From positions 1-57,307 of the forward strand of contig JBGSII010000025.1 in NCBI GenBank assembly GCA_041742555.1: DNA of 57,307 nucleotides, in the 5' to 3' direction. Under the pieces are notes generated by a model that searched no databases, was not told the DNA's origin, and was given only the letters and a program-made list of their open reading frames with translations. Shown piece by piece: positions 2,670 to 47,650 of this stretch. The stretch comes from Ilumatobacteraceae bacterium (GTDB lineage: Bacteria; Actinomycetota; Acidimicrobiia; Acidimicrobiales; Ilumatobacteraceae). The stretch's first letter is position 1, and the number at the start of each line of letters is the position of its first letter. The translations under genes were made by a program, and so were the position numbers.

Positions 2670-2692
2670 GTGCTGCGCGAGAGGTGCTGCGC
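2670..2692 (+). promoter_or_regulatory. 9-bp direct repeat (gtgctgcgc, 5-nt spacer, gtgctgcgc) just upstream of the giant-gene start; candidate regulator site
   Basis: Read directly: gtgctgcgc at 2670-2678 and again at 2684-2692. It sits in a locally lower-GC stretch 20-50 nt upstream of ATG 2712/2745. Function is purely conjectural. Confidence 0.2.
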
Positions 2693-2711
2693 ATTGAAGC
2701 AGGGGATTCGC

Positions 2712-14847: not shown

Positions 14848-16749
14848 TCAGCCGACGATGCCTCGCTCGCGCAGGGCGGCGATGATCTGATCGGCGGCGG
14901 CCTCGGGCTGCGACGTCGAGGTGTCGACACGGACCTCGGGCGCCTCCGGTGGCTCGTACGGTGAGTCGATGCCGGTGAAGTTCGACAGCTCACCTCGGCG
15001 GGCCTTCGCGTAGAGACCCTTCGGATCGCGCTCTTCGGCCAGGTCGAGGGGCGTGTCGACGAACACCTCGATGAACTCGCCGTCCTCGACCGCCTCACGG
15101 GCGAGACGTCGTTCGGCCCGGAACGGGGAGATGAACGACACCAGCACCACGAGGCCGGCGTCGACCATCAGCGCCGACACCTCGGCGATCCGGCGGATGT
15201 TCTCCACACGGTCCGCGTCGGTGAATCCGAGATCCCGGTTCAGGCCGTGACGGACGTTGTCGCCGTCGAGGAGGTAGGTGCGCACACCCTGGGTGTGCAG
15301 CTTCGACTCGACGATGTTGGCGATCGTCGACTTGCCGGCGCCCGACAGACCGGTCAACCACACGACCGCGGGGCGATGGGTGTTCATCTCGGCCCGGGCG
15401 CCCTTGTCGACCTGGACGTCCTGCCAGTGGATGTTGTGCGAACGCCGGAGCGCGAAGTGCAACAGACCCGCGCCGACGGTGACGTTGGTGAGCTTGTCGA
15501 TCACGATGAAGCCACCGGTGTCGCGGTTGACGTTGTACGGGTCGAACGGGATGGCCCGATCGAGACTGACGTTGCACACGCCGATCTCGTTGAGTTCCAA
15601 CGTGTTCGCCGCCAGGTGATCGAGGTTGTTCACGTCGATGCGGAACTTCGGTTGGCTGATCGTGGCGCCCACGGTGCGGGCGCCGATCTTGATCAGGTAC
15701 GGCCGCCCAGGGAGCATTGCATCCTCGTGCATCCACACGACGTGCGCCTCGAACTGGTCCGCAACCTCGGCCGGGTCGCCCGCCGCACAGATCAGGTCGC
15801 CGCGACTCGCATCGATCTCGTCGGTGAGCGTGATCGTGACCGACTGGCCGGCGATCGCCTCGTCGAGGTCGCCGTCCATCGTCACGATCCGATCGACAGT
15901 GCTCGTGGTGCCCGCAGGCAGCACCCGGATCGGATCACCGGGCTTGATCGAACCGCCGACGATACGTCCCGAGAACCCGCGGAAGTCCAGGTTCGGTCGG
16001 TTCACCCACTGCACGGGCATGCGGAAGGACTGGTCGGCGAGGTCGTCGTCGACCGGCACCGTCTCGAGGAACCCGAGCAGCGTCGGGCCGTGATACCACG
16101 GGGTGTTCGCGCTCGGCACGACGATGTTGTCGCCCTTGAGCGCCGACAGCGGGATGAACGTCATGTCGTCGAGGCCGATGCGGCTCGCGAACTCGCGGTA
16201 CTCGTCCTCGATGGCCGAGAACACCTCGTGCGAGTACTCCATGAGGTCCATCTTGTTGATGGCCACGACGACGCGCTTGATGCCCAACAGCGACACGAGG
16301 AAGCTGTGACGCCGGGTCTGGGTGAGCACGCCCTTGCGGGCGTCGACCAGGATCACCGCGACATCGGCGGTCGAGGCGCCCGTCACCATGTTGCGCGTGT
16401 ACTGCTCGTGGCCCGGGGTGTCGGCCACGATGAACTTGCGGTGCTCGGTCGAGAAGAAGCGATACGCCACGTCGATCGTGATGCCCTGCTCGCGTTCGGC
16501 CGACAACCCGTCGAGCAGGAGCGCGAAGTCGAGGTCGCCGCCCTGCGTGCCGACCTTGGCCGAGTCGGCCTCGAGCGCCGCGAGGTGGTCCTCGAACACG
16601 AGATGGGTCTCGTAGAGGAGGCGACCGATGAGCGTGCTCTTGCCGTCGTCGACGCTGCCGCAGGTGATGAACCGCAGCAGGCTCTTGTACTGGTGCGACG
16701 TCAGATAGGCGTCGATGTTCTCCGCGATCAACTCCGATGCGTGTGCCAT
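14848..16749 (-). CDS. cysNC: Bifunctional sulfate adenylyltransferase subunit 1 / adenylylsulfate (APS) kinase
   Basis: GTPase motifs [17 protein letters not shown] and NKMD in the N-terminal two thirds. C-terminal APS-kinase P-loop [16 protein letters not shown]. Its start ATG overlaps the cysD stop (TGATG). Confidence 0.95.
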
Positions 16750-17702
16750 CAGAAGTACCCTTCCTGCTTCTTCTTCTCCATCGATCCAGCGGAATCGGTG
16801 TCGATGAGCCGACCCTGACGCTCCGACGTGGTGGCCAGCAACATCTCCTGGATGATGCCGATGAGCGTGTCCGCCTCGCTCTCGATCGCGCCCGACAGCG
16901 GGTAGCAGCCGAGCGTACGGAAGCGCACCGACTTCATCTCGGGCACCTCACCGTCGTGAAGCGGCATACGGTCGTCGTCGACCATGATCAACGTGCCGTC
17001 ACGGTCGACCACCGGGCGTGGCGCCGCGTAGTAGAGCGGCACGATCGGGATCTGCTCGAGGTGGACGTACTGCCACACGTCGAGCTCGGTCCAGTTCGAG
17101 ATCGGGAAGACCCGCACGCTCTCGCCGTTGCTGCGCCGGGCGTTGTACACCTGCCACAGCTCGGGTCGCTGACGCTTCGGATCCCACTGGTGTTGCGCGG
17201 TGCGGATCGAGAAGATGCGTTCCTTGGCCCGTGACTTCTCCTCGTCACGTCGGGCGCCACCGAAGCAGAGATCGAACTTGTTTGCGTCGATCACCTGCTT
17301 GAGGCCCTCGGTCTTCCACATGTCGGTGTGCAACGCCGAACCGTGATCGAACGGGTTGATGCCCATCTCGATGCACTCCGGATTCTGGTGCACGATCAGA
17401 TCGAGGCCGAGCTCCTTCGCGGTGTTGTCGCGGAAGGCGTACATCTCCTTGAACTTGAACGTGGTGTCGACGTGCACCAGCGGGAACGGCGGCTTCGAGG
17501 GGTAGAACGCCTTCATCGCCAGGTGCAGCATGACCGAGCTGTCCTTGCCGATCGAGTAGAGCATCGCCGGGCGCTCGCTCTCCGACACCGCCTCACGCAT
17601 GATCTGGATCGCTTCGGCCTCGAGCCGTTGCAGGTGGGTCAGGCGGCCGGCCGAGAGCTGGGTGGTCGGGGTCTCCGCTGCGCTCGTGGTCATCGTGGTC
17701 AT
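16749..17702 (-). CDS. cysD: Sulfate adenylyltransferase subunit 2
   Basis: [19 protein letters not shown]...[16 protein letters not shown]...[11 protein letters not shown] is the classic CysD/PAPS-reductase-fold N-terminus. Start trimmed from the track's 17783 to ATG 17702, which is preceded by GGAGGAG. Confidence 0.93.
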
Positions 17703-17859
17703 GGGCTCCTCCAACGTCGATTCTCTATCAACTCGGTGGAGAATAGTCAGATATCGACCGCCATGCACCTGGGATGCGATCAAGAAGCACTCAAGAAGGT
17801 CTCAAGCACGACCCGCGGAGGACTCGAAGGGCGCTCGTGAACCCGGCGAGCGGGTCGGG

Positions 17860-18843
17860 TCAGCCGAGTACCGACCGCACGGCGTCGATCACCCGATCGT
17901 GGAAGCGACCGTCGGTCGCGACCACGCCGCTGTTCGCCAGCAGCTTCGCTCCATGTGAGAAGTCGAGCGGGGCACCGGTGACATCGGTGACCACACCGCC
18001 CGCCTGCTCGACGACGAACTTGCCCGCCGCATGGTCCCAGATCTTCTCTCGGTAGTCGGCGCGTGTCGGCAGCCGCAGGTAGATCGATGCATCGCCTCGG
18101 GCAACAGCGGCGTACTTGCACTGACTGTCGATGCGGTACGGCTCGGCCGTGATGCCGAGCAGCGCGGCGATCTGGGCCGAGTCGTCCTGGTTCGAGTGCC
18201 CGGACTCGACCGACTCACAGAACCGCGCTTCGGCCAGGCTCGCCGGAGCGGCGACCCGCACCGGTTGCGCCGTGGCGGACGATCCGTACCAGGCCAGGCA
18301 CGAGCCGTCGACAGCAGCGAAGATCGCTCCGACCGAGCCATCGGGATTCGGGAGATTCGGACAGCCGAGCACCCCCAGGATCACCTGGCCGCGTTCGATC
18401 AAACCCAGCGCGATCGCGTACTGGTCACCGCGCAGGAACCCCTTGGTCCCGTCGATTGGGTCGAGCGTCCAGTACCGCTCGGTCGCACCGTCGGACGAGC
18501 CAACCGAGATCCAGTCGAGCACAGCATCGGTCGACGCCGCGTCGCCGCGCTGCGATGCGACCAAGTCGACGACGGCGGCGAGCATCTCCGAGGTCTCGGG
18601 TGCTCGCAGATCCTCGGACTCCTCCTCGCCGATCATCTCGATCGAGCCGAGCGAGTCGGTCAGCTCCGCACACACCACCGCCTGCGCGGCGAAGTCGGCG
18701 ATCGTGACCGGACTGGCGTCTCCCTTCGTCAGCGTGTGCCCCGCGAGCAGGCGACCCTGTGCGGCGGCGCACACACGCGCCGCCGAGCGCACCGCCGCAA
18801 GCGCGGCATCGATCTCGCCGCGGTCCACTGCCACCTGGGTCAC
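17860..18843 (-). CDS. cysQ: 3'(2'),5'-bisphosphate nucleotidase (PAP phosphatase), HAL2/SAL1-type long form
   Basis: WTLDPIDGTKGFLRGDQYAIALGLIERGQVILGVLGCPNL, ESVESGHS, DSQCKYAAVARGDASIYLRLP and REKIWDHAAG..VEQAGG..TD..G.PLDF align block for block with yeast Hal2/plant SAL1 as I remember them. At 327 aa it is longer than E. coli CysQ. GTG start. Confidence 0.88.
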   Translation of the reverse strand: MTQVAVDRGEIDAALAAVRSAARVCAAAQGRLLAGHTLTKGDASPVTIADFAAQAVVCAELTDSLGSIEMIGEEESEDLRAPETSEMLAAVVDLVASQRGDAASTDAVLDWISVGSSDGATERYWTLDPIDGTKGFLRGDQYAIALGLIERGQVILGVLGCPNLPNPDGSVGAIFAAVDGSCLAWYGSSATAQPVRVAAPASLAEARFCESVESGHSNQDDSAQIAALLGITAEPYRIDSQCKYAAVARGDASIYLRLPTRADYREKIWDHAAGKFVVEQAGGVVTDVTGAPLDFSHGAKLLANSGVVATDGRFHDRVIDAVRSVLG

Positions 18844-18859
18844 GACAGCCCTACAGTCG

Positions 18860-20443
18860 TCACGATGCGCCGTGGCCGCGCAGGACGACGAAGATCGTGC
18901 GCAACACGATCTTCACATCGTGCAGCAGCGACCAGTTGTCGACGTAGTACAGATCCAGACGCTTGTACTCGTCGAAGGTCGTCTCCGACCGGCCCGACAC
19001 CTGCCACATCCCCGTGATACCGGGAAGGACCCGCAACCGTTCGTGCACGTCCTCATCCCACTCTGCCACCTCCCGCGGTAATGCCGGACGCGGCCCCACG
19101 ACGCTCATCTCACCACGCAGCACGTTCCAGAACTGCGGCAGTTCGTCGATCGAGAACTTGCGCAAGACTCGGCCCACCCGTGTCACACGCGGATCAGCGC
19201 TGATCTTGAACAACGGTCCATCCGACTCGTTCAAGTCGAGCAACTCATCCTTCATCGCGTCGGCGCCATCGCACATCGTGCGCAACTTGATGATGTCGAA
19301 GGGGGTTCCGCCCTCACCGATGCGGCGCTGGCGGAACAAGACTGAACCCTTCGACTCGAGCCGGATGGCGACAACGGCCACTGCGACGATCGGCGCAGTG
19401 ATCACGAGCGCAGCGATCGACACCGTGACGTCGAACACCCGCATCGCCGATCGCCGCCAACCCGTCCGGATCACCGGCTCGATGTAGAACAACGCCTGAC
19501 CATCGAGCTCCTGAGCCCGCAACCGATGCAAATCGATATCGCGCAAGCTCGTTCCCAACGTCACGTGCAAGCCGGCGTCGGTCAGGCGACGACTCAACGC
19601 ATTCACCATTTCACCCGTGGTCGACTGCAGCGAGATCAACACCCCTGTCGCTCCCAGCGAGCGCGCGATCAGTTCGATCTGGTCGGTCTCGCCGAGCAAC
19701 GGTAGCCCACAGTCCAGAAGAGGTGGCTCGTCGCCGATGAAGCCGAGCGCGCGATATCCAAGTTCCGGATGACTCTGCATCGTCCGAGCTACCGCGGCGG
19801 CGTACTCATCGGTGCCGACCACCAGAACCGGCCGCGACAAACGACCCTCGGTTCGCAGACGTCTGAACACGACACGGGCGATCGAGCGTTCGACGTACAG
19901 TGCCGCAAACGCACACGCCAGGAGCGCTGCGGTCCACCAACGCGACAGGTTGTCGACCTGGAACACGAATGCCAGAGCGACCACCCACGCGACGCCCACC
20001 AATGACACCACAGCGATGTGTTTGGCCTCGTCAGCCGCACGGAGGTTGGCGCGTGACACGTAGAGGTTGGCCGCGCGCGCCGACATCAGCCACAGAGGGA
20101 GCGATGCAACGAGGAGCAGCCATTCAGCGATGACGACCGACTGGGACTCCGGCCGGAAGACCGCCTGAATGGCCAGCGCGAACGCTGCCCCGAAGAGTAC
20201 GGCGAGCACATCCGCAAGCATCAAGGTTCGTTTCACCCTGATCGGGGGGATGGTTGCCGTCGCCGGCACGCTGACCAGTTGCTCGAATCCCGACGACTTG
20301 TGTCGCCGGCCGGCGTCGATCCGAGCATCGACGGGCGCGACGAGCTCGAGTCGCGGGGGCTCCGCTGCCCCACCAGTTAGTTGTCCGGCGCCGTGAAGCA
20401 CCATCGGCGACACCAGCTTTCGGGTTGAATTCCGCCTACCCAT
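18860..20443 (-). CDS. Polyprenyl-phosphate hexose-1-phosphate transferase (WbaP/EPS-initiating 'bacterial sugar transferase')
   Basis: N-terminal TM helices. C-terminal catalytic block RLESKGSVLFRQRRIGEGGTPFDIIKLRTM...DGPLFKISADPRVTRVGRVLRKFSIDELPQFWNVLRGEMSVVGPRP. ATG at 20443 is preceded by GGAG. Confidence 0.92.
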   Translation of the reverse strand: MGRRNSTRKLVSPMVLHGAGQLTGGAAEPPRLELVAPVDARIDAGRRHKSSGFEQLVSVPATATIPPIRVKRTLMLADVLAVLFGAAFALAIQAVFRPESQSVVIAEWLLLVASLPLWLMSARAANLYVSRANLRAADEAKHIAVVSLVGVAWVVALAFVFQVDNLSRWWTAALLACAFAALYVERSIARVVFRRLRTEGRLSRPVLVVGTDEYAAAVARTMQSHPELGYRALGFIGDEPPLLDCGLPLLGETDQIELIARSLGATGVLISLQSTTGEMVNALSRRLTDAGLHVTLGTSLRDIDLHRLRAQELDGQALFYIEPVIRTGWRRSAMRVFDVTVSIAALVITAPIVAVAVVAIRLESKGSVLFRQRRIGEGGTPFDIIKLRTMCDGADAMKDELLDLNESDGPLFKISADPRVTRVGRVLRKFSIDELPQFWNVLRGEMSVVGPRPALPREVAEWDEDVHERLRVLPGITGMWQVSGRSETTFDEYKRLDLYYVDNWSLLHDVKIVLRTIFVVLRGHGAS

Positions 20444-20652
20444 TCATCCGCTCCAAACGTCACCGGAAGACCTATCACAGCTTCACCACGGAGCGAAAGT
20501 GATTCCACCAAGCTTGCTTCAAGAGTTCATCTACCTCTGACATTCCAGTGACATATCGATGCGGATTCCCCACTCTGGGCGTTCGCACGTGTTCATCGCT
20601 TGCAGCGAACTTGAGGTTCGCCGGCCGCCAGGCGGACGCCTCGCAACCCGGC

Positions 20653-22068
20653 TCAATCGGTCGCAACCGTGGTGACCGGGGACTCCAGCCAGTCGTCTTC
20701 GCCGACGAAGGCGGAAGGGGGGCTCGGTGGCGTCGGACGCGGCAGGTCCACAGATCGGCGGCTCTGCGAACTACTCGGATAGGCATCTCGTCGGAGCCGA
20801 CGTCGCGGCACCCGATTGAAAACGATGCCCACCAGGACTCCACCCGCGGACGTGATGCGGTCGACCGAATCGGACAAGGATCCGAGATCGCTCGAGCGAT
20901 TGTTCACGACGAGAACGACGTGGCGCGCTTCGGCGACGACGAGCGGGGTCTCCGGGGCACCACGCAAGGGCGGGCTGTCGATCACGACGAACGACGACCG
21001 GCGTCGCAGGGTCGCCAGTACACCGGGAAGTGTCGTCGAGATCACGTCGGCGACGCGGCCGACCGGTATGCCCGCACAGAGCACCTCGAGACCCTGGTAG
21101 GGCGTCGACTGCAGCTCGATCTCGCTGCTCCCCGACGCAGCGATGTCGCCCAGACCGTATCCCGGCACTGCCATCAGTTGGTCGGCCAGCGTCGGATGAT
21201 GAAGATCTGCCTCGACCGCCACCACGGACCTGCCCACCCGAGCGAGCATGCACGCAACTCCAGCACAGATCGTACTCTTGCCGATCTGGCGGTGTTGCGA
21301 CACGAAGGCGACCCGATCGACGGAGCCGTCGCCGATCAGAAACTCCAGATTGGTGCGCAGCGCCTCGAAGGCTGACACCACATCGGTGGAACCCTTGCGC
21401 TCTTGGAGCAGTTTCGCCATCGGGATCTTTCGCTCCCGTCGCCGGAGCACGGGGATCTCGCCAAGCACCGTCGTCCCGAGGCGTTCGCGGACGGCACGGT
21501 TCGAGTCGAACGCGTTTCGTATCCGGTCGACGGCGAGCGCAGCGAACACGGCAGCGATGACGCCGAGCACGACTGCCGCAACCAGAATCGGTGGACGTCG
21601 CGGTTCGACTGGCTCACGGGGAAGCCGGGCCGGATCGAGTTGGACGAGCTCGACCAGTGGGTCATCCGCTCGCTCGGCGACGAGTTCAGCGGCCACTGCG
21701 TCAGCCCAGGACTGCGCCGCCTCGGGTGACGGTGATGTCGCCCGAATCCGGAGGACGCTCGTATCGGCCAGCGCCTCGATTCGCGCCGGGCGGGCGCGCA
21801 ACTCCTCCGGGACTCGTTCCGCTGCCCGCTCGCGAAGTGTGCGGCTCTCCGCCCATTCGGAGAGCGCTGGAAGCTGAAAACTGATCTGTTGGATGCTGCC
21901 GCTTCCCTCGCTGACGCTCTTGAGGTTCAAGACGAGTGTGGCGTTCGTGCGGTACAGCTGCTCCGGTGCGTACGCCGCAACCACACCGATTCCCACGAAC
22001 CCGAGGAACACCGCGAGCATTACCCCGAGGTGTCGCCCCAGAATCAGTCTGATCTCGCGAAGCTCCAT
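20653..22068 (-). CDS. Polysaccharide co-polymerase (Wzz-like) fused to BY-kinase-type P-loop ATPase
   Basis: N-terminal TM plus Wzz-like periplasmic-type segment plus a second TM. Then Walker A IGKST, A' VVAVEADLHHP and B VVIDSPPL. The C-terminal tail has only one Tyr. Confidence 0.85.
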   Translation of the reverse strand: MELREIRLILGRHLGVMLAVFLGFVGIGVVAAYAPEQLYRTNATLVLNLKSVSEGSGSIQQISFQLPALSEWAESRTLRERAAERVPEELRARPARIEALADTSVLRIRATSPSPEAAQSWADAVAAELVAERADDPLVELVQLDPARLPREPVEPRRPPILVAAVVLGVIAAVFAALAVDRIRNAFDSNRAVRERLGTTVLGEIPVLRRRERKIPMAKLLQERKGSTDVVSAFEALRTNLEFLIGDGSVDRVAFVSQHRQIGKSTICAGVACMLARVGRSVVAVEADLHHPTLADQLMAVPGYGLGDIAASGSSEIELQSTPYQGLEVLCAGIPVGRVADVISTTLPGVLATLRRRSSFVVIDSPPLRGAPETPLVVAEARHVVLVVNNRSSDLGSLSDSVDRITSAGGVLVGIVFNRVPRRRLRRDAYPSSSQSRRSVDLPRPTPPSPPSAFVGEDDWLESPVTTVATD

Positions 22069-22182: not shown

Positions 22183-25100
22183 TCACACGTCTCCGATGCG
22201 ACCATGGCGCTGGATCTCATCGACCGAGAGCGCCCGATCGTACACCGCCAGGAGATAAATCGTTCCCAGCCACGGCTTCGAACCACTTCGTTCAGCGCCG
22301 ATGTGCAAGCGAGGCCACTGCTCCCACGAACCAAGCGTCCCTCCCGCCGTTCCCGTCGCCACGGCAACGCCGTTCACGAAGAGCGTGGTCGTCCCGTTCA
22401 CCGCTCGCGTGAGCACGACATGTGCACGACTGGCGGTGACCTGGTTGGCCGCGGACAGCGGCGGCTCGCCACGAATGTTGGTGGCGGTACTACGAACGTA
22501 GGAATCGAGCACCGTTGCTTGCTGGACGAGGCCCACATGTCGAGAGGATCCGTTGATCGACAGGCCCATCACCATCGCCGACACCTGGGACACGTTGGCC
22601 GGTTCGAGCCACATCTCAACCGAAAACTGACCGGATCCTCGAATGGCGCTGTTCAGCTCGACGGCAGCCGCCGACTCTGCCACCGTCGGCGCATCGAACC
22701 GCAAGCCACTCGGGACCCTGACGGTCCGGCTCGTGTCTGCGATCACCATGTCAAGTGGTGTCGCGACGCCGGACTGATCGAGAACGAGACTGCCACTCGG
22801 CTCATTGAACGGATAGAAGGCGAGCAGTCCCTCGGTCGCCCGAGCCTCCGCGCTGATCTGATAGCCGAACGCGGCGACAGCGGACGGCTCGATCCCCGAA
22901 ACGAACACTCGCGCCTTGACGGTCGTCGTTTGACTCACGTCGAACGGCGCGGCGTAGACGGTCGATGTCGCCGTCGGGTCGGTCCCGTCGAGCGTGTAGC
23001 GGATTGTCGACGACACCACACTGGACGTGAGCGAGACCTCGACCGAACCGGGGTACGTTCCGGGGCTGGGCGACGCCGTCGGCGGCGGAAGTGCCCCCGC
23101 AGCAACCACCGTCACCGTCACGACGTCGCTCGACGAGCGCTCGCCGTCGTCGGCGGTCAACTGGAATCGGTAGATGCCGGCGGTCGACAGGGTGATGTTC
23201 GTCGCCGGGCTCGCAGGATTCACGATCGTCGCCGCAGCAGGACCGGCGATCTGGGTCCACGCAGTCACGAGTGCTCCCGGCGACGACGGCAACCCGTCGT
23301 CGGTGGCAGTGGCGGCCATTGTCACCGTCGCCCCCTCCAACACGGTGACGTCGGGACCAGCGTTGACCTGTGGGCGCTCGTTGTTCGATGGTGGCAGCAC
23401 GCCGGCTCGGTGATTCTGCGCGATCTCCAGCGCAGAAAGATCATCACGGTAGATCGCCACGTGGTACAGGTCGCCGTTCCACGGCGAGTTTCGTTGAATG
23501 GTGTTGCCCAGACCGAACGCAAAGCCGGGGCCCCATCCGGCGAGAGTCCCGGAACGCGTCGACGTCGAACGCAACTCGCCGTCGACGTAGACCTCGAGCG
23601 CTCCGGCCGGACGTCGCACCAGGACGACCTGCTGCAGGTCCTGACCGAAGACGCCGGGCGTCGAGAGGGTTGGTTGCCCCATGGCATTGGTCGACGACGT
23701 CCGTACATCGGTCCGGAAGATCTGTCCCGACTGCCGCACGGCCAGGTTCTGCTGATCCGGCGCGCTCGGGGCAAGGTGCAGCAACGTCTGATCGCCACCG
23801 CCGACCGACGCCGGGTCGACCCACATCTCGACGGTGAACGACCCGCTCGCCGCAAGTGCATCGTTCAACGGCCGGGCGCCGAGGCCCGTGCGAATCAACG
23901 ACGACCCGCCGAGACGTAGTGCCTGCTGTGCGGGCAACCACGTCGTCGTCGACCCGCTCTGCACGGTCAGGTCGAGCGCGGAGCCACCCGGAACGCTGTT
24001 GCGCACCGTGTTGCCGGATCCCTCGTCGAACTTGTACTCCGCCTGGAGGTTCGTTGTGACCCGCTGGAACTCGACGTCGAGGATCTCGTAGATACGTTCC
24101 GTCGTGTCGCTCGGATCGAACCCGCTCCGGAAGGCCTTGGCCTTCACGGTCATCGATGAATCGACGATGAGCGGGGTCGTGTACAAGCTGGACGTCGACG
24201 TCGGTTCCGAACCGTCGAGGGTGTACCTGATCTCGCCGCCGACGGAGCCTGACGACATCGAGACCGTCGTCAGGCCTTCGTAGGTGCCACTCGGCGGCGA
24301 CACGAGTGGCGTCACCGCCGACAGCTCACGAACCTGTACATCACCGAACGTCGCATCGACGTGATGCGCCACCAACGCGAGCGACCCCTGATCGGGCGCG
24401 CCCACAGCAAGCGTGGTCTCGATGTCCCACTCGAACGGTTCGGCCGTCCCCTGCTCCCAGACCTTGAGCCGGTAGGACGGCCCTGTGGTAGCGGTCCCCT
24501 CCTGAACCTGCATCTTGTAGATGTACTCGGTGCCCCGACGCAGTTGTCTCCCCGTGAGGTCCTCGGCGACGAGTTGCGCCTTGCTGTCACGGATCTCGAA
24601 CCGCTCGGCGTTGGTGTCGTTGCGGTACCGGTACCAGACCAACGCACCGAGACGATCTTGGAATCCGAACTTCGGCTGCACCGTGCTGGTGGGCGAATGA
24701 CCCAACCAGTGCGGGATGAAGCCGATGCCTGGCCCGCTGCTCGGGAATTGGTAGCCGGCCGGGTCGAAACTGTTGATCGTGATCGGCACCTCGACCTCGA
24801 ACGACCCCCACCCGCCGTCGCCGACGGCGATCAACCGGTCGTAGCCGATCTCGTCGATGTGGAGACGGCCGCCGTCGAGGGTCCACCGACCGTCGATCGG
24901 CTGCGCCACGTCGTGAGTGTCCGACACACCCTGCCAATCGACGCCATAGCGCTTGGGCCAGACCTTCCCCGGGGTGTAGTTCACCGGGATGTCGATCGAG
25001 GAGACATTGAACGCACCGTCGATCGCACGAATGGTCACTGTGTTCGCGCCGGGTGACAGCTTCGATGCATCGATGTCGGCGTTGAAGTCACCGTCGTTCG

Positions 25101-28100
25101 CCAGGCGGCGGGTACAGCTGATCCCGACGTCGCATGTCGTCGAACCCAAACCCATCCGGACGGGCTGGCCACCGTTCACCTGATACGTGATCGATTGCAC
25201 TCCGTCGGGATCCGCAACGCGGCCCTGCACGTTCACGTCGGGCTGGGCGAGTCCGACCGACCCGAACTCGAGCGGTGTTCCGCTCCATGCCTGACCGTCG
25301 CCGCCGAACACCGTGAAGAGCGGTCCACCGCTGGTGCCGGGATTGGTGATCTCGATGGGGTCGCTCTGCGACCAGAAGTAATCGACAAACGCGGTGTGCG
25401 CCGGGATCTCGGACGCCTGTGGGTTCGAGTTGCCGACGAGCGGCCCCATCCGGGTGACGGCGATGTCGATCGAGCCGGCGTAGATCTGCTGCCACGTCGC
25501 ACCGTCATCGGACGAGTACTCGAACACCCAGTTGTCGCCGGTCCGCGCGACGCGCAGGCTTCCCGGCACGGCGCCCGGGACGACGACGTTGGCAAGCGTC
25601 TGCAACCTGGTCGGCGTCAAATGGCCGACGAACGCCCGGGTGACAGATCCGTCGCTGAAGAGGTCGAATCGCACCAGGGTCTTGTCGCTCTGCTCGAACA
25701 CCACCCCTTGGATCTGCGACGCGAACGTGACGACCGATTCGAATCCGGCCTGCACGACGAAGTCGTTGTCGGCGACCGGCTGAAGCAGGCGCAGCGCCGA
25801 TTGGTTGGCCGTCGACAAGTCATGTCGCTGTTGCCCGATCACGCTCATCGAGACCATTCCGGGCAGGGCCGTGACGGTGCTCGTACCCCGGGGATCGACC
25901 ACGTACCAACGATCATCGAGTTCGGCGAGATCGAAGTTGTCGGAAAATGCACCACCAGGGCACGGCGGGGTCGTGAACCCCGACGGAGTCGACCTCGCCG
26001 TGTTGCCCACGGCGTCGGTCGACTGCACCTCGTAGAAGTACTGCGACCCACAGCTGAGCGGGCCCACGACGGCGCTGTGCGAGAACGAGGCGATGTTGTC
26101 GATCACGGGAGTCAGCTCGAGCGCCGCAGTCGTACCCCAGTTCACCCGGGTGGTCGCCGGTTCGTCGGTCGTCCAACCGACCGTTGCCTGAGCCGACGAC
26201 GGAGCCCCGACCTGCACCTCGACCTCGGCCAGCGTCGGCGGCCGAGTATCGGGCCCGAGACCGCCGTCGTCGGCCGCGATCGGACTGTCGACGTTGTAGA
26301 AGTAGTCGATCGACCCGATGAACCCCGGGGGCGACGCAGTTCCGGTCGCCGTGTTGCCGATGTATGGGCCGACATACGTTGACGCGACCGAGGCATCGAA
26401 CGTCACGATCGGTGACCAGATCACCGCGTCGACCGAGTGCCACATCGTCCAATTGTCGCCGGAGCGCTGCACTCGCAGGTAGTGCTCCGCTGACGCCGGC
26501 AGGTCGCCATAGTGGCGCACTGCGGCGACGCCCGCGATGACGCTTGCGACATAGGCCTTCACGGCGGCACCGTCATGGTGCACCTCGAAACGCAGGAACG
26601 TGTCGTCGCTTTCCTCGACGACGATGCCCTGCATCTGAAAACGCGTGGTGAGGACCGACTCGAACTTGGCCTCGACGCCGAAATTCCCGAGTGGACCGGC
26701 TTGACGGAGCCTCAGCGCCCGGTTTGCACCCGCGAAGAGATTGTGGTCGCTGCCGGCCGGAAGCGACACGAGGGTGTTGGTGTCGGTGACGGTCACCACG
26801 GCGTCGCCGACAGGATCGACCACGTTCCAGTGGGACCCGAGCTGACCGGAGCTGAAATCGTCCGAGACGATCGGTGTGCAGGGTTCGGTGACGAACTCGA
26901 CCATCTGCCCCACCGTGGTACCGGCCGCGGTACTCGACTCTGGGCGCACGTAGTGGCGCTGGCCGCACGCCAGGAAACCGATCGAGATGGAGTGCGCGGT
27001 CGCCGCGGTGGCTCCTGCGGTCGTCGACACGAGCTCGACGGTCGGCCCGTGCCGGAGCACACCCGAGGCCGGCTCGTTGGTCTGCCACGTGACGGTCGCG
27101 TCACGCGCCGAGGCGTCGACGACGACGCCGCTGATCGTCGGACCCGGGTTCGGCGGAATCGGTGACGTCGCACTGTCAAAATAGTCCACCCGGGCCGTGA
27201 ACGCAGGCGCGCTGCCCGACGCGAAGGTGGTTGCGTACAAGCCGACCTGGCGCAGTTCGAGGGGGATGGTGAACGATCCAGCCGGGAACCACGAGGAACC
27301 GTTCCACGAACGCTGGAACGTCCAACTGTCGCCCGATCTCACCGTGCGGAGATATCGCTGGGGGACACCACCCAGACTCTTGCGGAAGACCCTGCGGGCG
27401 GTGCCGTCCTCCATGCGATAGACGTCGACGTTCACCTTGCTGTTTGCGTAGGTGATGGCCGAGCGGACCCAGTTCCGTTCGTCCTGCCAGAACAACATGC
27501 CCTGGCCCTGGCCTTGCTGATCCGGCACCGACGTGAAGCCCACGGCCACGTCGAAATCGGTGTCCGCGACGTCCTGGACGACGCGCGGAGCGGTGTCCCG
27601 ACCCGTCCACAGGTCACGGATCGGGCCGTCTGGCATGGCGATGTCGAGCGTCGTGCCCGACATGGCGAACGTAGCGCCACCAACCGGATCCTCTGTGCGC
27701 CAAACTGCATTCAGGCTTGGACTATTGAAGTCATCGCTCGCCGGGCCGACACCGGAGCTGCCGTTGAACGAACTCGATCCCACCGTCACGATCGGCGCTC
27801 GGTACGCACCGAGAATGTCGGCCCGGGCAGTGGTTGGGTCGACGGTGCCGAGCAGGCCGGCCGAGAACGTCTGCGGCGAGCCTCCGGTCTGCCGCGGAAG
27901 GTATGGGAAGTTGAGGCTCGATCCGCCACGACCCAAACCGAGCACCGTCATCCGACCGTCCAGCTGCCGGTAGGAGTCGACTGAGCCATCATCTTCGTGC
28001 TGGGCGAGGAAGAAGCTCGCGCCGACGGCGGGATCGGCCGCGTACATCCACTCCTCGCCCGGCAGGTCGAGCTCGAAGGTGCCATCGGATGGCACCTGGA

Positions 28101-30534
28101 CACCATCGGAGCGGCGAATGAAGTCACCGGCGTCGAATGTGCCGCCGGGTGTGCCCTCGTACAGCACCCAGAAGTCCGATGCCGTTCGCCGCATCTCGAG
28201 ATCCGTGTGCGTCGGGTACATGTTCCAGACCGCCACCCACGAATTGTCGACAGCCCGGGACTCGAACGTGATTCGGAGTGGACCCTCGTGCAACACGGTC
28301 GTCGTGGTCGTACCCGGACGGCCAGGGTGGAAGTACTTGGCAGGCGGCTTCGCGGCGTTGGGGAACCCGCGGAAGTCGCCCAGGGACCCCGTCGCCGACG
28401 TCCAGTTGAGCCAATCACGGCCCCCGGCGTCCACGATCGACGAGAACCCGCCTCCGGCAGTCGTGTGGAAGTACCAGGCGCTGCCATCGGAAAGATCGAA
28501 CCGCAGTGCCTCGAAACCCTCGTCCGTCGATGTCGTCACCGAGACCTGATCAGCGAAGGAGCGTGGATCGAGCCCTTTGGCCGCCTTGTCGAAGTAGGCG
28601 TAGTAGACGCGAGACTGACCAGCCGCCGTCGATCCCTCCAACTGCCACAGCAACGTGCCCGTGGCGTTCGTGTCTGCGTTGTAGGTGGTGGCGGGGTCGA
28701 ACTGGTGAGGGACCGTGTCATCGATCACGACACCGGCAGCATCGACCTCGACCACACGGATCGAGTCAGGGTCGAAGCCGGGGCCGCCGGCTCCAGCCGA
28801 CGCCATCAGCGAGGTGAAGTTGAGCTGTTGGTTGACGACCTTCCCGGTGCGCGCAACCGGATCCGGGCCGACCGTCAGAGGAACGCGGAAGTCGAAGGTC
28901 TCGTCCCACCAAGGGGCGTTGTCGTCCACGGTGGTCGTGACGTAGACGGTGGCCTCGTCGCTGATCACGCTGCCAGCGGTATTGGAGACCCGCACGCTGT
29001 ACTTCGAGCCGTTGTCCCCGGCGACCAGTGCCGGCGTCGTGAACTTCGAGCTGTTGGCGCCGGGCACCGGCTGACCGTCGAGGAGCCACTGGAACGCCAG
29101 CGGTCCCTGCCCACTCGCTCCAGCCGAGAACGTTGCTGACAGACCCGGCCGGATGAACACGTCCTGGGGCTGTCTTGTGATCACGGGGACACCCGTCGGC
29201 GGGGAGCGGTGAATCACGATCATCGGGCCCGGCCCTTCGACCATCGCCCCGAAGCCGGGGGGCTGATACGTCCACTGGATCGTGTTGGTGCCCGGTTCGA
29301 GCACCGCAGGATCGATCGGACGGAAGGACGTGTCCCACTTGTCCTCGGTCCCGACGAACGCGGGGAATGGTGTCGTGTCGTTGATCGAGATGTCCGGGCT
29401 CTCCCAATAGTTACCGAGCAGGTACGCCCGATCGGCGCCGTTGTAGTCCGCCGGGAGCTCGATGGTGTCACGGGCGATCTGCGGGAACGTTCGATCGAAG
29501 TAGAGCGCTCGATCCTCGAAGTTGCTGATCGTGAAGGCCTCGACACTGTAGGAACGCTGCAGGGTGAAGTCTGCAGAGGCGCCGCCTGGGGCTTCGACGA
29601 CGTTACCGTTGGCGTCGACGACACGAATCTTGAACCGCACGCCGCTCTGGCTGACCACGTCGGGGATGTTCCAGGTCACGCTGTAGGGAGGAGTCGAGTC
29701 CGTCCCGATGTGACCGATCGTGGCCCCGTTGGGCCGCTGCGAGACACCGCCCGGCCCGTAGTTGTTGCGCAAGAAGTTGTGCCAATCGCGGGTGACGCCG
29801 TCGTTGTCCTCGTCGAAACCGTCGTAGTACGCATGGAATTCGACGTACGCGGCATCGGTGGCAGTAGCGGCCAGCACCACCTGGTTGCCGTCGACCTGCA
29901 GGACCCCACCGACGTTCGGACTGAGTGCCGGCTGACCAGGCACCCCGACCGACGTCAGTTGTCCGGTCGGAGGGGTGACATCGCCACTCGACACGATCGG
30001 ATTCGATGCGTCGTAGTACACCCGGACCATCACGTCGTGAACGTGGTAGGCGCCTGTGGCCTCCTGGAACCGAAGGACGTTGGTTCCCGTCCGCAGCTGC
30101 TCCAGTGGGACAGTCGCCGTGAACGGGGTTCGGCTGAAGTTGTCGCCCACGTTCGGCACGATCTGAGGGCCGCCGTTGATCGTGAACCGAGCCGACCGGT
30201 TGGCCCGGTTGCGCCAGAGGTCGACATAGATCACCGCGGCAATCGCACCGCTCACGTTGTCGGGAATGTCGAGTTCGATCGACTTCGCGCAGCCTGCCGG
30301 CTCGGCGTACCAGGATCCGCCTGCGGTGGCATCACTGTCGCAGCCAGCGGTGTAGGACGCGTGGCTGGCCCAGTACTCCTTGTACGTGTACTCGGTGTCG
30401 TTGAAGTACACCCCAGCCTGAACGGGTGCCGGGGTGGACACCATCACTCCGCCGACCAGGAGCGCCACTGCGAGCACGAGCCCGAAACCGGCACTCCGAG
30501 TTCTGTTGTTGGTCATCTCCGCGCACCCGCTCAT
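22183..30534 (-). CDS. Giant secreted multidomain protein (2,783 aa) with Ig, FN3-like, ConA/LamG-like, PKD-like and CHB_HEX_C-like modules
   Basis: Uninterrupted ORF. Signal peptide RTRSAGFGLVLAVALLVGGVMVSTPAPVQA. Contains an I-set-like Ig domain and a DUF2341-like segment (NAPWWDETFDFRVPLTV). Three FN3-like plus ConA-like repeats follow (WNVVDPVGDA...; WYVVDPRGTS...), then two CHB_HEX_C-like units (IRYTLDGSEPT; IRYTLDGTDPT), a PKD-like unit and two Laminin_G_3-like domains at the C-terminus. Alternative start ATG 30516. Confidence 0.9.
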   Translation of the reverse strand: MSGCAEMTNNRTRSAGFGLVLAVALLVGGVMVSTPAPVQAGVYFNDTEYTYKEYWASHASYTAGCDSDATAGGSWYAEPAGCAKSIELDIPDNVSGAIAAVIYVDLWRNRANRSARFTINGGPQIVPNVGDNFSRTPFTATVPLEQLRTGTNVLRFQEATGAYHVHDVMVRVYYDASNPIVSSGDVTPPTGQLTSVGVPGQPALSPNVGGVLQVDGNQVVLAATATDAAYVEFHAYYDGFDEDNDGVTRDWHNFLRNNYGPGGVSQRPNGATIGHIGTDSTPPYSVTWNIPDVVSQSGVRFKIRVVDANGNVVEAPGGASADFTLQRSYSVEAFTISNFEDRALYFDRTFPQIARDTIELPADYNGADRAYLLGNYWESPDISINDTTPFPAFVGTEDKWDTSFRPIDPAVLEPGTNTIQWTYQPPGFGAMVEGPGPMIVIHRSPPTGVPVITRQPQDVFIRPGLSATFSAGASGQGPLAFQWLLDGQPVPGANSSKFTTPALVAGDNGSKYSVRVSNTAGSVISDEATVYVTTTVDDNAPWWDETFDFRVPLTVGPDPVARTGKVVNQQLNFTSLMASAGAGGPGFDPDSIRVVEVDAAGVVIDDTVPHQFDPATTYNADTNATGTLLWQLEGSTAAGQSRVYYAYFDKAAKGLDPRSFADQVSVTTSTDEGFEALRFDLSDGSAWYFHTTAGGGFSSIVDAGGRDWLNWTSATGSLGDFRGFPNAAKPPAKYFHPGRPGTTTTTVLHEGPLRITFESRAVDNSWVAVWNMYPTHTDLEMRRTASDFWVLYEGTPGGTFDAGDFIRRSDGVQVPSDGTFELDLPGEEWMYAADPAVGASFFLAQHEDDGSVDSYRQLDGRMTVLGLGRGGSSLNFPYLPRQTGGSPQTFSAGLLGTVDPTTARADILGAYRAPIVTVGSSSFNGSSGVGPASDDFNSPSLNAVWRTEDPVGGATFAMSGTTLDIAMPDGPIRDLWTGRDTAPRVVQDVADTDFDVAVGFTSVPDQQGQGQGMLFWQDERNWVRSAITYANSKVNVDVYRMEDGTARRVFRKSLGGVPQRYLRTVRSGDSWTFQRSWNGSSWFPAGSFTIPLELRQVGLYATTFASGSAPAFTARVDYFDSATSPIPPNPGPTISGVVVDASARDATVTWQTNEPASGVLRHGPTVELVSTTAGATAATAHSISIGFLACGQRHYVRPESSTAAGTTVGQMVEFVTEPCTPIVSDDFSSGQLGSHWNVVDPVGDAVVTVTDTNTLVSLPAGSDHNLFAGANRALRLRQAGPLGNFGVEAKFESVLTTRFQMQGIVVEESDDTFLRFEVHHDGAAVKAYVASVIAGVAAVRHYGDLPASAEHYLRVQRSGDNWTMWHSVDAVIWSPIVTFDASVASTYVGPYIGNTATGTASPPGFIGSIDYFYNVDSPIAADDGGLGPDTRPPTLAEVEVQVGAPSSAQATVGWTTDEPATTRVNWGTTAALELTPVIDNIASFSHSAVVGPLSCGSQYFYEVQSTDAVGNTARSTPSGFTTPPCPGGAFSDNFDLAELDDRWYVVDPRGTSTVTALPGMVSMSVIGQQRHDLSTANQSALRLLQPVADNDFVVQAGFESVVTFASQIQGVVFEQSDKTLVRFDLFSDGSVTRAFVGHLTPTRLQTLANVVVPGAVPGSLRVARTGDNWVFEYSSDDGATWQQIYAGSIDIAVTRMGPLVGNSNPQASEIPAHTAFVDYFWSQSDPIEITNPGTSGGPLFTVFGGDGQAWSGTPLEFGSVGLAQPDVNVQGRVADPDGVQSITYQVNGGQPVRMGLGSTTCDVGISCTRRLANDGDFNADIDASKLSPGANTVTIRAIDGAFNVSSIDIPVNYTPGKVWPKRYGVDWQGVSDTHDVAQPIDGRWTLDGGRLHIDEIGYDRLIAVGDGGWGSFEVEVPITINSFDPAGYQFPSSGPGIGFIPHWLGHSPTSTVQPKFGFQDRLGALVWYRYRNDTNAERFEIRDSKAQLVAEDLTGRQLRRGTEYIYKMQVQEGTATTGPSYRLKVWEQGTAEPFEWDIETTLAVGAPDQGSLALVAHHVDATFGDVQVRELSAVTPLVSPPSGTYEGLTTVSMSSGSVGGEIRYTLDGSEPTSTSSLYTTPLIVDSSMTVKAKAFRSGFDPSDTTERIYEILDVEFQRVTTNLQAEYKFDEGSGNTVRNSVPGGSALDLTVQSGSTTTWLPAQQALRLGGSSLIRTGLGARPLNDALAASGSFTVEMWVDPASVGGGDQTLLHLAPSAPDQQNLAVRQSGQIFRTDVRTSSTNAMGQPTLSTPGVFGQDLQQVVLVRRPAGALEVYVDGELRSTSTRSGTLAGWGPGFAFGLGNTIQRNSPWNGDLYHVAIYRDDLSALEIAQNHRAGVLPPSNNERPQVNAGPDVTVLEGATVTMAATATDDGLPSSPGALVTAWTQIAGPAAATIVNPASPATNITLSTAGIYRFQLTADDGERSSSDVVTVTVVAAGALPPPTASPSPGTYPGSVEVSLTSSVVSSTIRYTLDGTDPTATSTVYAAPFDVSQTTTVKARVFVSGIEPSAVAAFGYQISAEARATEGLLAFYPFNEPSGSLVLDQSGVATPLDMVIADTSRTVRVPSGLRFDAPTVAESAAAVELNSAIRGSGQFSVEMWLEPANVSQVSAMVMGLSINGSSRHVGLVQQATVLDSYVRSTATNIRGEPPLSAANQVTASRAHVVLTRAVNGTTTLFVNGVAVATGTAGGTLGSWEQWPRLHIGAERSGSKPWLGTIYLLAVYDRALSVDEIQRHGRIGDV
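22186..22835 (-). other. Laminin_G_3-like (ConA-like) domain, C-terminal copy
   Basis: LLAFYPFNEPSGSLVLDQSG...FSVEMWLEP...LFVNGVAVATG...WLGTIYLLAVYDRALSVDEIQRH. Confidence 0.65.
23405..24050 (-). other. Laminin_G_3-like (ConA-like) domain, first copy
   Basis: LQAEYKFDEGSGNTVRNS...FTVEMWVDP...LEVYVDGELRST...WNGDLYHVAIYRDDLSALEIAQNH. Confidence 0.65.
28939..29187 (-). other. Immunoglobulin I-set/Ig_3-like domain
   Basis: PVITRQPQDVFIRPGLSATFSAGASGQGPLAFQWLLDGQPVPGANSSKFTTPALVAGDNGSKYSVRVSNTAGSVISDEATVYV (aa about 450-532 of the protein). Confidence 0.6.
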
Positions 30535-30653
30535 TTCACTGTGACGGAGCTCCGTTCGCTCGAGCCCCGCCAGGCCGACGAGCCCATGTTAGGCACGGCC
30601 ACCACCGGTGTCTACCGCGGGCACCAAGGATCAAGAAGGGGTCAGATTTCGAG

Positions 30654-34370: not shown

Positions 34371-34683
34371 GTCAGACGCGTTGTGACGGCGCGTTCCGCC
34401 CGCTCTGACACCTCGACACGAACTGCACGACGCCGCAAGGTAGCAGACCGTCCCGAGGCTCGTACGTCTGCCGAACCTCGGCAGCAACGCTGTTGCTTCT
34501 GACAGAGGTACCGCAGAATCCAGCCAGGGGTTGAGTTCTCGTCATGAATCCGTAAGAATCACGGAGTCGTGTCGGACCACCGACGCCGAAGATCCGGTCA
34601 AGGTTGGGATGGCGGGCTCAAGTATCGACAGCGACCGGCCGATCACTCCCCACTGCACCCCCCCCAACGGAGGTTCCAATTCC
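34371..34683. promoter_or_regulatory. Divergent promoter region (GT2-led operon on the - strand; secreted-protein gene on the + strand)
   Basis: Back-to-back starts at 34370 (-) and 34684 (+). Contains a perfect dyad agcaac-gct-gttgct at 34483-34497, a C8 tract at 34658-34665 and an SD ggagg at 34669-34673. Confidence 0.4.
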
Positions 34684-37824: not shown

Positions 37825-37826
37825 CG

Positions 37827-39068: not shown

Positions 39069-39070
39069 GG

Positions 39071-45925: not shown

Positions 45926-45993
45926 ACCCCGAAGTGTAAGGGCCTTCCATGCCGTTGTGGTCGCGGCCTCGACGCTCCCACAACAGCATGGTG

Positions 45994-47571: not shown

Positions 47572-47650
47572 TTCGCTGATTCGAGAGCGTTGACCGTAGC
47601 CCGCTCACCTCGAGGGACGCCAACGCGCTGAGCTCGGACCGCCATCTCGA

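Follow-up and report, generated by a model that had tools for sequence, protein, structure and literature searches.

A giant secreted all-beta protein in a predicted sulfated-polysaccharide cluster of an Ilumatobacteraceae bacterium fuses four recurrent extracellular protein families

We analysed a 57,307-nt contig (JBGSII010000025.1, assembly GCA_041742555.1; hereafter the window) from an Ilumatobacteraceae bacterium, in which a gene for a 2,783-aa protein (the giant gene and the giant protein) lies among genes predicted to build a sulfated polysaccharide. Domain searches, structure models and comparisons across genomes indicate that this protein is a lineage-specific fusion of a recurrent set of extracellular proteins that is co-inherited with a glycan pathway. 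Four families are joined in it: an N-terminal region, an immunoglobulin-like (Ig) domain with a mutarotase-like module, DUF1349-type concanavalin A (ConA)-like repeats, and a further Ig domain with a galectin-like fold (the mid region). In other phyla each of the four is a protein of its own, secreted or anchored at the surface, and its gene lies in a similar glycan operon. The most likely target that the giant protein binds or processes is the surface polysaccharide of its own cell, and we tentatively favour a role as an extracellular multivalent binder or organiser of the polymer made by its cluster.

The giant gene is real. The window has a G+C content of 64-68%, and long spurious antisense open reading frames (ORFs) are common in it; the giant ORF is not such a chance high-GC reading frame and is genuine and intact, because it encodes Pfam domains that score above threshold, because an identical protein with the same start is found on contigs from two independent Logan assemblies (separate sequencing runs), and because an Acidimicrobiales metagenome-assembled genome (locus L005) holds an intact colinear orthologue of 2,817 aa with 45-69% identity in every segment. 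The 8.4-kb gene of the original prediction is confirmed at its full extent, and its product is a Sec-secreted, roughly 290-kDa all-beta protein of the "beads-on-a-string" type, of great size and with a high content of Thr, Ser, Gly and Ala.

The signal peptide, already part of the original prediction, was read by eye from the translation. The expected Ig domain is an I-set match above the curated cutoff (aa 450-523, E = 1.5e-5, 25.4 bits against 23.7), and an Ig domain stands directly N-terminal to the same type of module in many relatives, for instance at loci L053, L061, L072 and L074. Three ConA-like units, 31-34% identical to one another, score well above cutoff with both GH43_C2 (56.7-63.6 bits against 22.7, three stretches) and DUF1349 (41-46 bits against 32.4); they had been described as three FN3+ConA repeats, and the ConA part of that description stands, whereas the pairing does not, as only two FN3 spacers lie between the units. 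The two terminal Laminin_G_3 domains were likewise recovered (119 bits against 27.6, two stretches), with copies 30% identical. By these profile scores above curated Pfam thresholds, the giant protein belongs to the Concanavalin A-like lectin/glucanase superfamily. Further features came to light that the original prediction had not listed, namely two CHB_HEX_C_1/Fn3_assoc domains, a K319L-type PKD domain, a 410-aa N-terminal region and the 350-aa mid region. Six lectin-type jelly-roll domains are present in total, spaced by Ig, FN3 and PKD domains. Pfam found no glycoside hydrolase (GH), polysaccharide lyase (PL) or carbohydrate esterase family anywhere in the protein and no SLH or other anchoring domain, and the C-terminus, read from the translation, has no LPXTG motif or transmembrane segment. 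PDB sequence and profile searches with the module and the N-terminal, mid, ConA and C-terminal regions matched only a low-complexity Thr/Pro linker. Pfam and NCBIfam searches at permissive E values returned nothing for aa 534-930 and, for the mid and N-terminal regions, no more than weak matches to Big_7.

The roughly 330-aa stretch that the original prediction had left unassigned, and had suggested to be a novel glycan-active catalytic domain, falls within a conserved two-domain module (aa 534-930) composed of a small beta-sandwich (about aa 549-650) and a galactose-mutarotase-like beta-supersandwich (about aa 664-920). The module has no Pfam match even at E <= 10 and no NCBIfam or PDB sequence match, and 65 members of its family carry no Pfam domain over the module region at E <= 0.1. 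The alignment of these 65 sequences (about 40% identity) contains 19 invariant columns (R642, R722, G723, P725, N726, H736, P737, G738, G751, E793, G794, P796, G797, G798, D804, E828, M862, G868 and R869), and an AlphaFold2 model computed from it reached a pLDDT of 93.7 and a pTM of 0.92. In a Foldseek search of the PDB with this model, the best matches were the C-terminal domains of GH38 alpha-mannosidases (2wyi, E = 1.5e-9, TMq about 0.5, probability 1.0), with further matches to the aldose-1-epimerase-like proteins HI1317, YeaD and GALM (TMt about 0.5; for 1jov, E = 2.7e-5 and TMt 0.52), to YidC P1, and to accessory domains of GH36, GH31, GH101 and LacZ; the probability was likewise 1.0 for HI1317, YeaD, GALM, YidC P1 and the GH36 and GH31 N-terminal domains. 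Based on the modelled beta-supersandwich, we place the module in the galactose mutarotase-like superfamily. An aldose-1-epimerase signature was sought as well: the module has no Aldose_epim Pfam match, and H736, E793 and E828 are among its invariant residues. No known catalytic domain was recognised in the giant protein by profile or structure, and matches of its modelled regions to such enzymes were weak whole-chain fold matches only, to the PL26 exo-rhamnogalacturonan lyase 5xqg (E = 4.7e-6, TMt 0.26) and to GH131 (TMt 0.33). The fold search called for in the original prediction therefore yields a conserved, carbohydrate-associated fold with invariant residues, but no known lyase or hydrolase catalytic domain.

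Searches also failed to reproduce the DUF2341-like segment of the original prediction (PF10102, aa about 540-650), to whose Pfam model neither the module nor its 65 relatives gave a match. UniProt labels one homologue, A0A160SZ30, "DUF2341 domain-containing", and the same protein had no Pfam match here at E <= 1; the W-x-Y-R-x-x-x-T-V motif at the start of the module resembles DUF2341.

The module family is large and widely distributed. A search of 5.8 billion proteins returned 153 matches with E values down to 1e-180, all annotated as hypothetical, none with a Pfam domain across the module and many of them stand-alone secreted proteins of 400-680 aa. When 1.84 billion representatives of clusters at 50% identity were searched exhaustively with a profile, 2,338 clusters passed E <= 1e-3 and 918 passed E <= 1e-30, the host proteins being 400-4,100 aa long. 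Scanning a single genome of each species for a sequence pattern gave at least 596 copies. Carriers include Chloroflexota, Acidimicrobiales, Microthrixaceae, Ilumatobacter, Nitriliruptorales, Gamma- and Deltaproteobacteria, Bacteroidota, Ignavibacteriota, Nitrospirales, Acidobacteriota, Dojkabacteria and Saccharibacteria, as well as archaea such as Methanoperedens and LFW-24, at least seven phylum-level lineages in all. Family members also carry CBM_4_9, CBM96, dockerin, PA14 and Calx-beta domains and tails of the type IX secretion system (T9SS); CBM96 is an alginate-specific family (PMC9971899). Across 24 long members the commonest partner domains are DUF1349 (14), LamG_3 (10), GH43_C2 (10), Ig, Flg_new_2, FN3, PKD and CBM_4_9; these proteins contain 45 families, and the 25 that occur most often include no known catalytic domain fused to the module. 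Literature searches that covered mutarotase-like lyases as well as DUF2341, DUF1349 and CBM96 turned up no account of the module family or of its gene cassette. In Ca. Promineifilum breve (LN890655.2, locus L002, 10001-13592), two tandem stand-alone module paralogues of 658 and 508 aa lie beside a 1,546-aa LTD/Exo_endo_phos protein; stand-alone homologues from this species include WP_197699868.1 and WP_095042218.1.

Two further regions define families of their own. The mid region has 125 homologues, all hypothetical proteins, with 17 invariant residues (the set comprises YDR, W, GH, QP and HH.D), and its AlphaFold2 model (pLDDT 92.5) shows an N-terminal Ig domain followed by a jelly roll. The best single-domain Foldseek match of this jelly roll is Bacillus subtilis YesU (1oq1, galectin-like fold, TMt 0.60, 12% identity), and legume lectins, the lectin-like domain of clostridial neurotoxin and the lectin domain of galactocerebrosidase were matched too. 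YesU, a DUF1961 protein, and the legume lectins thus share the fold of the mid region, which differs in having no Pfam match, its own invariant set and the N-terminal Ig. The N-terminal region, a smaller family than those of the module and mid regions (32 matches, hypothetical proteins), is the part best conserved between orthologues (69-75%) and is made of three beta-rich parts: aa 41-180, a Big_7-like Ig domain with a YDEDNDG motif, and a third domain. The first of these bears a conserved Cys65/Cys82 pair and the near-invariant motifs YKEYW..H58, E78-P, D105-x-W-R-N, S-R-T-P and H164-x-H-D167..R171, which could form a metal or active site.

Comparison of loci ties these families to glycan biosynthesis at two depths. 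Among close relatives, the order sulfotransferase, giant gene, BY-kinase-like gene is kept in five related Acidimicrobiales loci (L001, L005, L006, L087 and L088), with the phosphoglycosyl transferase (PGT) gene next after the BY-kinase-like gene wherever the loci extend far enough; L001, L087 and L088 are error-fragmented long-read contigs, while L005 and L006 have uninterrupted frames, L006 being cut by the contig end. The genes cysQ and cysD follow the PGT gene in L001, though not in L087. For the wider family, we ran tblastn with the proteins of the window against 81 loci (80 from the genome scan plus the Promineifilum locus) and found the module accompanied by other segments of the giant protein, methyltransferases, the cytidylyltransferase (62-72% identity), the SDR enzyme, the PGT and GT2 enzymes. 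Of the module loci that extend for 8 kb or more to either side (41 in all), 25 have a further giant-protein segment, 17 have homologues of the cluster's methyltransferases and 18 have both kinds, whereas one, a close relative of the window, has a sulfation gene. Co-occurrence with cysDNC, for which the original prediction had called for a search, is accordingly not a trait of the family: a family-wide link to cysDNC or sulfotransferases is rejected, sulfation genes being confined to close Acidimicrobiales relatives, and the conserved partner of the module in these comparisons is the methyltransferase/CDP-glucose cassette rather than sulfate activation.

The packaging of these families varies among lineages. 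A Bacteroidota operon (L042) encodes, in order, a PGT, a GFO/IDH/MocA oxidoreductase, a ConA-array protein, a separate protein like the N-terminal region, an FN3 protein, a module protein, a mid+ConA protein, two GT2 enzymes, Wzx and two methyltransferases; a T9SS sorting tail is detectable in four of its five extracellular proteins, the exception being the one like the N-terminal region. A deltaproteobacterial locus has a 2,637-aa fusion of module and ConA domains together with a Wzt ABC exporter containing a Wzt_C domain, and an archaeal locus encodes a 1,350-aa fusion of the domains CBM4_9, mid, FN3, Ig, module and Ig, with genes for two methyltransferases and a GT2 enzyme beside it. In the Actinomycetota (Microthrixaceae, Nitriliruptorales) the fused domain order is that of the window. 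Since the export route varies (Wzx, Wzt or Wzy with a polysaccharide co-polymerase, PCP) while the extracellular proteins persist, it would be the glycan, rather than the export machinery, that these proteins interact with. The cultured and genetically studied Thiocapsa roseopersicina DSM 217 (NZ_FNNZ01000012.1, locus L015, 2625-14516) encodes a 2,352-aa ConA+mid protein and a 1,170-aa module+PKD protein with an adjacent sulfotransferase-like gene, and offers a practical knock-out system.

Given this architecture and context, we propose that the giant protein, once secreted through Sec, may be a partner, outside the cell, of the polysaccharide that the surrounding genes produce. The mutarotase-like module and the six lectin-type jelly rolls would bind the polymer multivalently, thereby holding or cross-linking it as a capsule or matrix around the cell, and the module, with its invariant Arg/Asn/His/Glu/Asp set, would be a specific recognition site for a conserved sugar moiety, possibly a trimming site. 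The recognisable domains are all non-catalytic beta domains of carbohydrate-binding or spacer type (ConA/DUF1349 three times, LamG_3 and CHB_HEX_C twice each, PKD, FN3 and Ig), and the module and mid regions are modelled with confidence as carbohydrate-associated folds. Co-inheritance with polysaccharide biosynthesis genes, as expected of a matrix protein, is seen both in the five-locus synteny and in co-location across phyla; the functional tie to the polymer advanced in the original prediction is thus supported by comparative genomics (with glycan-operon locations in at least seven lineages), but the lyase or chain-trimming domain offered as one form of it was not found. The analysis shows the domain anatomy, the folds, the conservation and the link to neighbouring genes, whereas we infer the ligand, the binding itself and the matrix role. 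Several points weigh against a binding role. The 19 invariant residues of the module, R, N, H, E, E, D and R among them, kept at about 40% identity in both bacteria and archaea, look more like an active site than a lectin site, and the N-terminal domain has its own conserved H..HD/E/D motif. The missing LPXTG, SLH and transmembrane segments leave it unexplained how the protein would stay at the cell surface. No partner gene lies within 10 kb in about 16 of the 41 module loci with long flanks, an example being Ca. Promineifilum breve, where no glycan genes lie within 10 kb of the module paralogues, and therefore the module can work outside such clusters.

These same residues feed the explanation that the giant protein is primarily an enzyme, with the module or the His-rich N-terminal domain as the catalytic core of an undescribed carbohydrate-active family that trims, releases or remodels the nascent polysaccharide, and the lectin domains as its carbohydrate-binding modules (CBMs). 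Enzymes of the trimming type are known from other exopolysaccharide operons (AlgL, PslG, BcsZ, RbmB), and catalysis by the module is possible: the 19 invariant residues are rich in R, N, H, E and D set in loops fixed by Gly and Pro, and the fold has catalytic precedents in the PL4 lyase domain and in the aldose 1-epimerases, which, like PL26 more weakly, are among the fold matches. Stand-alone members are laid out like carbohydrate-active enzymes (CAZymes), with a signal peptide, the module and then a CBM (CBM_4_9 or CBM96), a dockerin or a T9SS tail; the lack of any observed fusion to a known catalytic domain leaves the module as the sole candidate for the "business end", and GH26 genes in the window and related loci make glycan cleavage part of the locus type. 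However, the structures closest to the module in fold are non-catalytic domains of GH38, GH36, GH31, GH101, LacZ and YidC, the module matches no CAZy-type Pfam family or PDB enzyme by sequence or profile, and a lyase role in particular was considered but is disfavoured, as no uronic-acid pathway gene is seen among the annotated genes of the window and the similarity to PL26 is weak and spans the whole chain. We regard a primarily enzymatic protein as the main rival to the binder reading and as somewhat unlikely. Less probable again is a broader possibility, in which the four families together form an unrecognised extracellular system for glycan processing or assembly, horizontally shared between bacteria and archaea and acting on a methylated CDP-hexose-derived sugar, with the module as the founding catalytic domain of a new CAZyme family.

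Two non-enzymatic alternatives are, in our estimate, improbable. The giant protein might be a glycan acceptor, a surface-layer (S-layer) or sheath glycoprotein within its own glycosylation cluster, with the Wzy_C protein serving as an O-oligosaccharyltransferase and not as a polymerase. Wzy_C domains do occur in O-oligosaccharyltransferases such as PglL and WsaB as well as in polymerases and ligases, S-layer glycoprotein genes can adjoin slg clusters, the size and Thr/Ser/Gly/Ala-rich composition of the protein would suit an acceptor, and many carriers are filamentous, sheath- or floc-forming taxa. A mere acceptor would, however, have no need of polar residues that are invariant across phyla, and the protein has none of the S-layer anchoring features sought; the Bacteroidota have the four families as individual proteins exported by the T9SS and not as one lattice protein, and the BY-kinase/PCP-like gene fits control of polymer chain length better. 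The other alternative is a general adhesin or a nutrient-capture protein for foreign glycans or surfaces, its place in the cluster being incidental or purely regulatory: LamG, CHB_HEX_C, PKD and Ig domains are common in adhesins, another giant ORF nearby on the other strand shares PKD+CHB units with it, and some module genes lie away from glycan clusters. Against such an incidental placement, in seven or more lineages, archaea included, four independent families repeatedly share their loci with genes for a PGT, GT2 enzymes, methyltransferases and exporters, at frequencies of 41-61% compared to roughly 1% or less per family per 20-kb window by our own estimate, which makes chance unlikely.

For the binder or organiser role that we favour, the closest functional analogy lies in Vibrio cholerae, whose rbm genes sit between the vps-I and vps-II polysaccharide operons and include rbmB for a putative glycanase. 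The biofilm matrix of this species is organised by RbmA, RbmC and Bap1, proteins that bind its exopolysaccharide, VPS (PMC5605196, PMC10102183). They resemble the giant protein in being secreted, modular and all-beta (FnIII, beta-prism lectin and beta-propeller in Vibrio), and differ in that no sequence or domain homology is shared, the giant protein being a single 2,783-aa ConA/LamG/mutarotase-like fusion from a probably monoderm actinobacterial host, with binding and ligand that are predicted. The galactose-mutarotase-like domains of known proteins share the fold of aa about 664-920, and the preceding small beta-sandwich mimics the two-domain C-terminus of GH38; the module nevertheless stands apart through about 10% identity, no Aldose_epim, Glyco_hydro_38C or other Pfam match, a family-specific invariant set and no attached (beta/alpha) or (alpha/alpha) catalytic domain. 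The operon glycanases AlgL (PL5), PslG (GH39), BcsZ (GH8) and PelA are secreted or periplasmic, have their genes next to those for biosynthesis and are required for the polymer to be made properly, a role the module might share, but their GH or PL families, folds and catalytic residues are known, and the giant protein has no such domain.

At the whole-locus level, the window is comparable to the synechan (xss) genes of Synechocystis PCC 6803, a Wzx/Wzy-type cluster that includes a PCP and is not known to encode a giant lectin-array protein. The xss cluster directs synthesis of a sulfated exopolysaccharide and includes sulfotransferases (PMC8205485). The window differs in carrying cysD, cysNC and cysQ, for synthesis of PAPS (3'-phosphoadenosine-5'-phosphosulfate), in the same gene string, together with a CDP-glucose/methyltransferase cassette.

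Secreted carbohydrate-binding or -processing proteins in exopolysaccharide loci and sulfated exopolysaccharide clusters are already known. What is new is three widespread unannotated domain families, their recurrent tie to a methyltransferase/CDP-glucose glycan cassette in bacteria and archaea, and their fusion into a single protein in Acidimicrobiales. These sizeable families, without Pfam, NCBIfam or PDB sequence coverage, are consistently linked to the synthesis of surface glycans in Chloroflexota, Actinomycetota, Bacteroidota, Ignavibacteriota, Proteobacteria, candidate phyla radiation (CPR) bacteria and archaea, and many carriers form flocs, sheaths or biofilms in activated sludge and sediments. 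If the families bind or process polymer, they would be the missing extracellular component of a widespread exopolysaccharide system and handles to find, purify or engineer sulfated and methylated bacterial polysaccharides; were the module catalytic, it would represent a new CAZyme family.

The gene neighbours on the same strand are those originally predicted: two alternating pairs of glycosyltransferase and sulfotransferase genes upstream and BY-kinase-like, PGT, cysQ, cysD and cysNC genes downstream, with flanking gaps of 224 nt upstream and 114 nt downstream (Table 1). Placement in the middle of one operon is upheld as to shared strand and short gaps, but a common operon with the upstream glycosyltransferase and sulfotransferase genes is doubtful given a promoter-like element and a hairpin in the 224-nt gap. 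The element (TAGACA-17 nt-TAACAT) is the only sigma-70-like site found in 20 kb, and its hexamers and 17-nt spacing are kept in the corresponding gaps of L001 and L087 (TAGACA...TAAGCT and TGGACA...TAGGAT) with divergent spacer sequence; the total of the promoter scan was not above shuffle expectation. The inverted repeat is a possible terminator-like hairpin, and L001 has a weaker hairpin where the two gaps align. When the two intergenic gaps were folded as RNA, neither z-score was significant and only this local hairpin stood out, and no terminator-like site was found in the 114-nt downstream gap. Because the -35/-10-like element is conserved, a hairpin precedes it and no terminator-like site follows the gene, the giant gene probably heads its own transcription unit, a sub-operon continuing with the BY-kinase-like, PGT, cysQ, cysD and cysNC genes (14848..22068).

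The product assigned to the surrounding genes is likewise predicted from their annotation. The cassette at 36598-42116 predicts a methylated CDP-hexose-derived sugar, and the cluster as a whole (Wzy_C, BY-kinase-like, PGT) predicts a sulfated polymer that contains it. Four sulfotransferase genes lie within the window (1106-1942 on the plus strand; 30759-31883, 32578-33735 and 35696-36601 on the minus strand), and with cysD, cysNC and cysQ they imply a heavily or variously sulfated product. The "Wzz/BY-kinase" assignment is weak and the protein is divergent: it scores 63 bits against a cutoff of 108 with TIGR01007, all its NCBIfam matches (eps_fam, Wzc, EpsG) fall far under the curated cutoffs, and a weak match to CbiA is all that Pfam returns; a Walker A motif (GKST) is present, with a single C-terminal Tyr and no Tyr cluster. 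Farther out in the locus are GT4 glycosyltransferases, the Wzy_C protein, an ABC exporter, a GH26 enzyme and a YNCE-like beta-propeller. In two orthologous loci a GH26 gene lies directly upstream of the sulfotransferase and giant-gene pair (L001, 5214-7151; L087, 5345-7435), making GH26 a candidate polymer-cleaving enzyme of this locus type.

Table 1 Features of the giant gene, its product and the surrounding locus (positions in the window)
Feature	Position	Strand	Remarks
Giant ORF, 2,783 aa + stop codon	22183..30534	minus	ATG start; ORF listing and translation
Sec-type signal peptide, aa 1-40	30415..30534	minus	NNRTRS positive charge, hydrophobic core, PAPVQA/GVYF cleavage after residue 40
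N-terminal region, aa 41-449	29188..30414	minus	no Pfam or PDB match; conserved hypothetical family
N-terminal domain, aa 41-180, ~140 aa	29995-30414	minus	no database match
I-set/Ig_3 immunoglobulin domain, aa 450-533	28936..29187	minus	Pfam PF07679
Module, aa 534-930	27745..28935	minus	homologues, alignment, AlphaFold2 model, Foldseek
Three ConA-like (GH43_C2/DUF1349) units and two FN3 (Pur_ac_phosph_N-like) spacers, aa 931-1725	25360..27744	minus	Pfam, internal repeats
Mid region, aa 1726-2075: Big_7-like Ig and galectin/legume-lectin/YesU-like jelly roll	24310..25359	minus	
C-terminal array, aa 2076-2783: CHB_HEX_C_1/Fn3_assoc, Laminin_G_3, K319L-like PKD, CHB_HEX_C_1/Fn3_assoc, Laminin_G_3	22186..24309	minus	Pfam
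Promoter-like element TAGACA-17 nt-TAACAT	30586..30614	minus	52 nt upstream of ATG
Inverted repeat, 12-nt arms, 92% complementary, 16-nt loop	30651..30690	minus	~70 nt after upstream sulfotransferase stop; no clear U-tract
Sulfotransferase	30759-31883	minus	immediate upstream neighbour
GT2	31682-32680	minus	upstream neighbour
Sulfotransferase	32578-33735	minus	upstream neighbour
GT2	33438-34487	minus	upstream neighbour
PCP/BY-kinase-like gene	20653-22068	minus	immediate downstream neighbour
Bac_transf PGT	18860-20443	minus	downstream
CysQ-like gene (phosphatase)	17860-18843	minus	downstream
CysD	16749-17783	minus	downstream
CysN/C	14848-16749	minus	downstream
Three paralogous Methyltransf_23/_14 methyltransferases	36598-40504	minus	one also with Methyltransf_13 zinc domain
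SDR (short-chain dehydrogenase/reductase) epimerase/dehydratase	40303-41376	minus	upstream cassette
Glucose-1-phosphate cytidylyltransferase	41337-42116	minus	TIGR02623, 340 bits, above cutoff
Wzy_C protein	49631-51031		farther upstream region of locus
GH26 glycoside hydrolase	55066-56166	plus	opposite strand, ~25 kb from giant gene

The other giant ORF of the window (2556-14648, plus strand, 4,030 aa) has in common with the giant protein a PKD+CHB_HEX_C unit with 52% identity over 182 aa (aa 2382-2562 against 3566-3747) and further CHB_HEX_C matches, and the two proteins appear to have exchanged or duplicated modules. A 374-aa FN3-containing ORF without an NCBIfam match (34531-35655, plus strand) lies on the opposite strand inside the minus-strand biosynthetic string. 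Two long ORFs overlap on opposite strands at 45949-47631 (plus) and 45994-47571 (minus): the former has no Pfam match and is probably spurious, and the latter encodes the YNCE-like beta-propeller (Pfam E = 2e-11), likely a further extracellular protein of the cluster.

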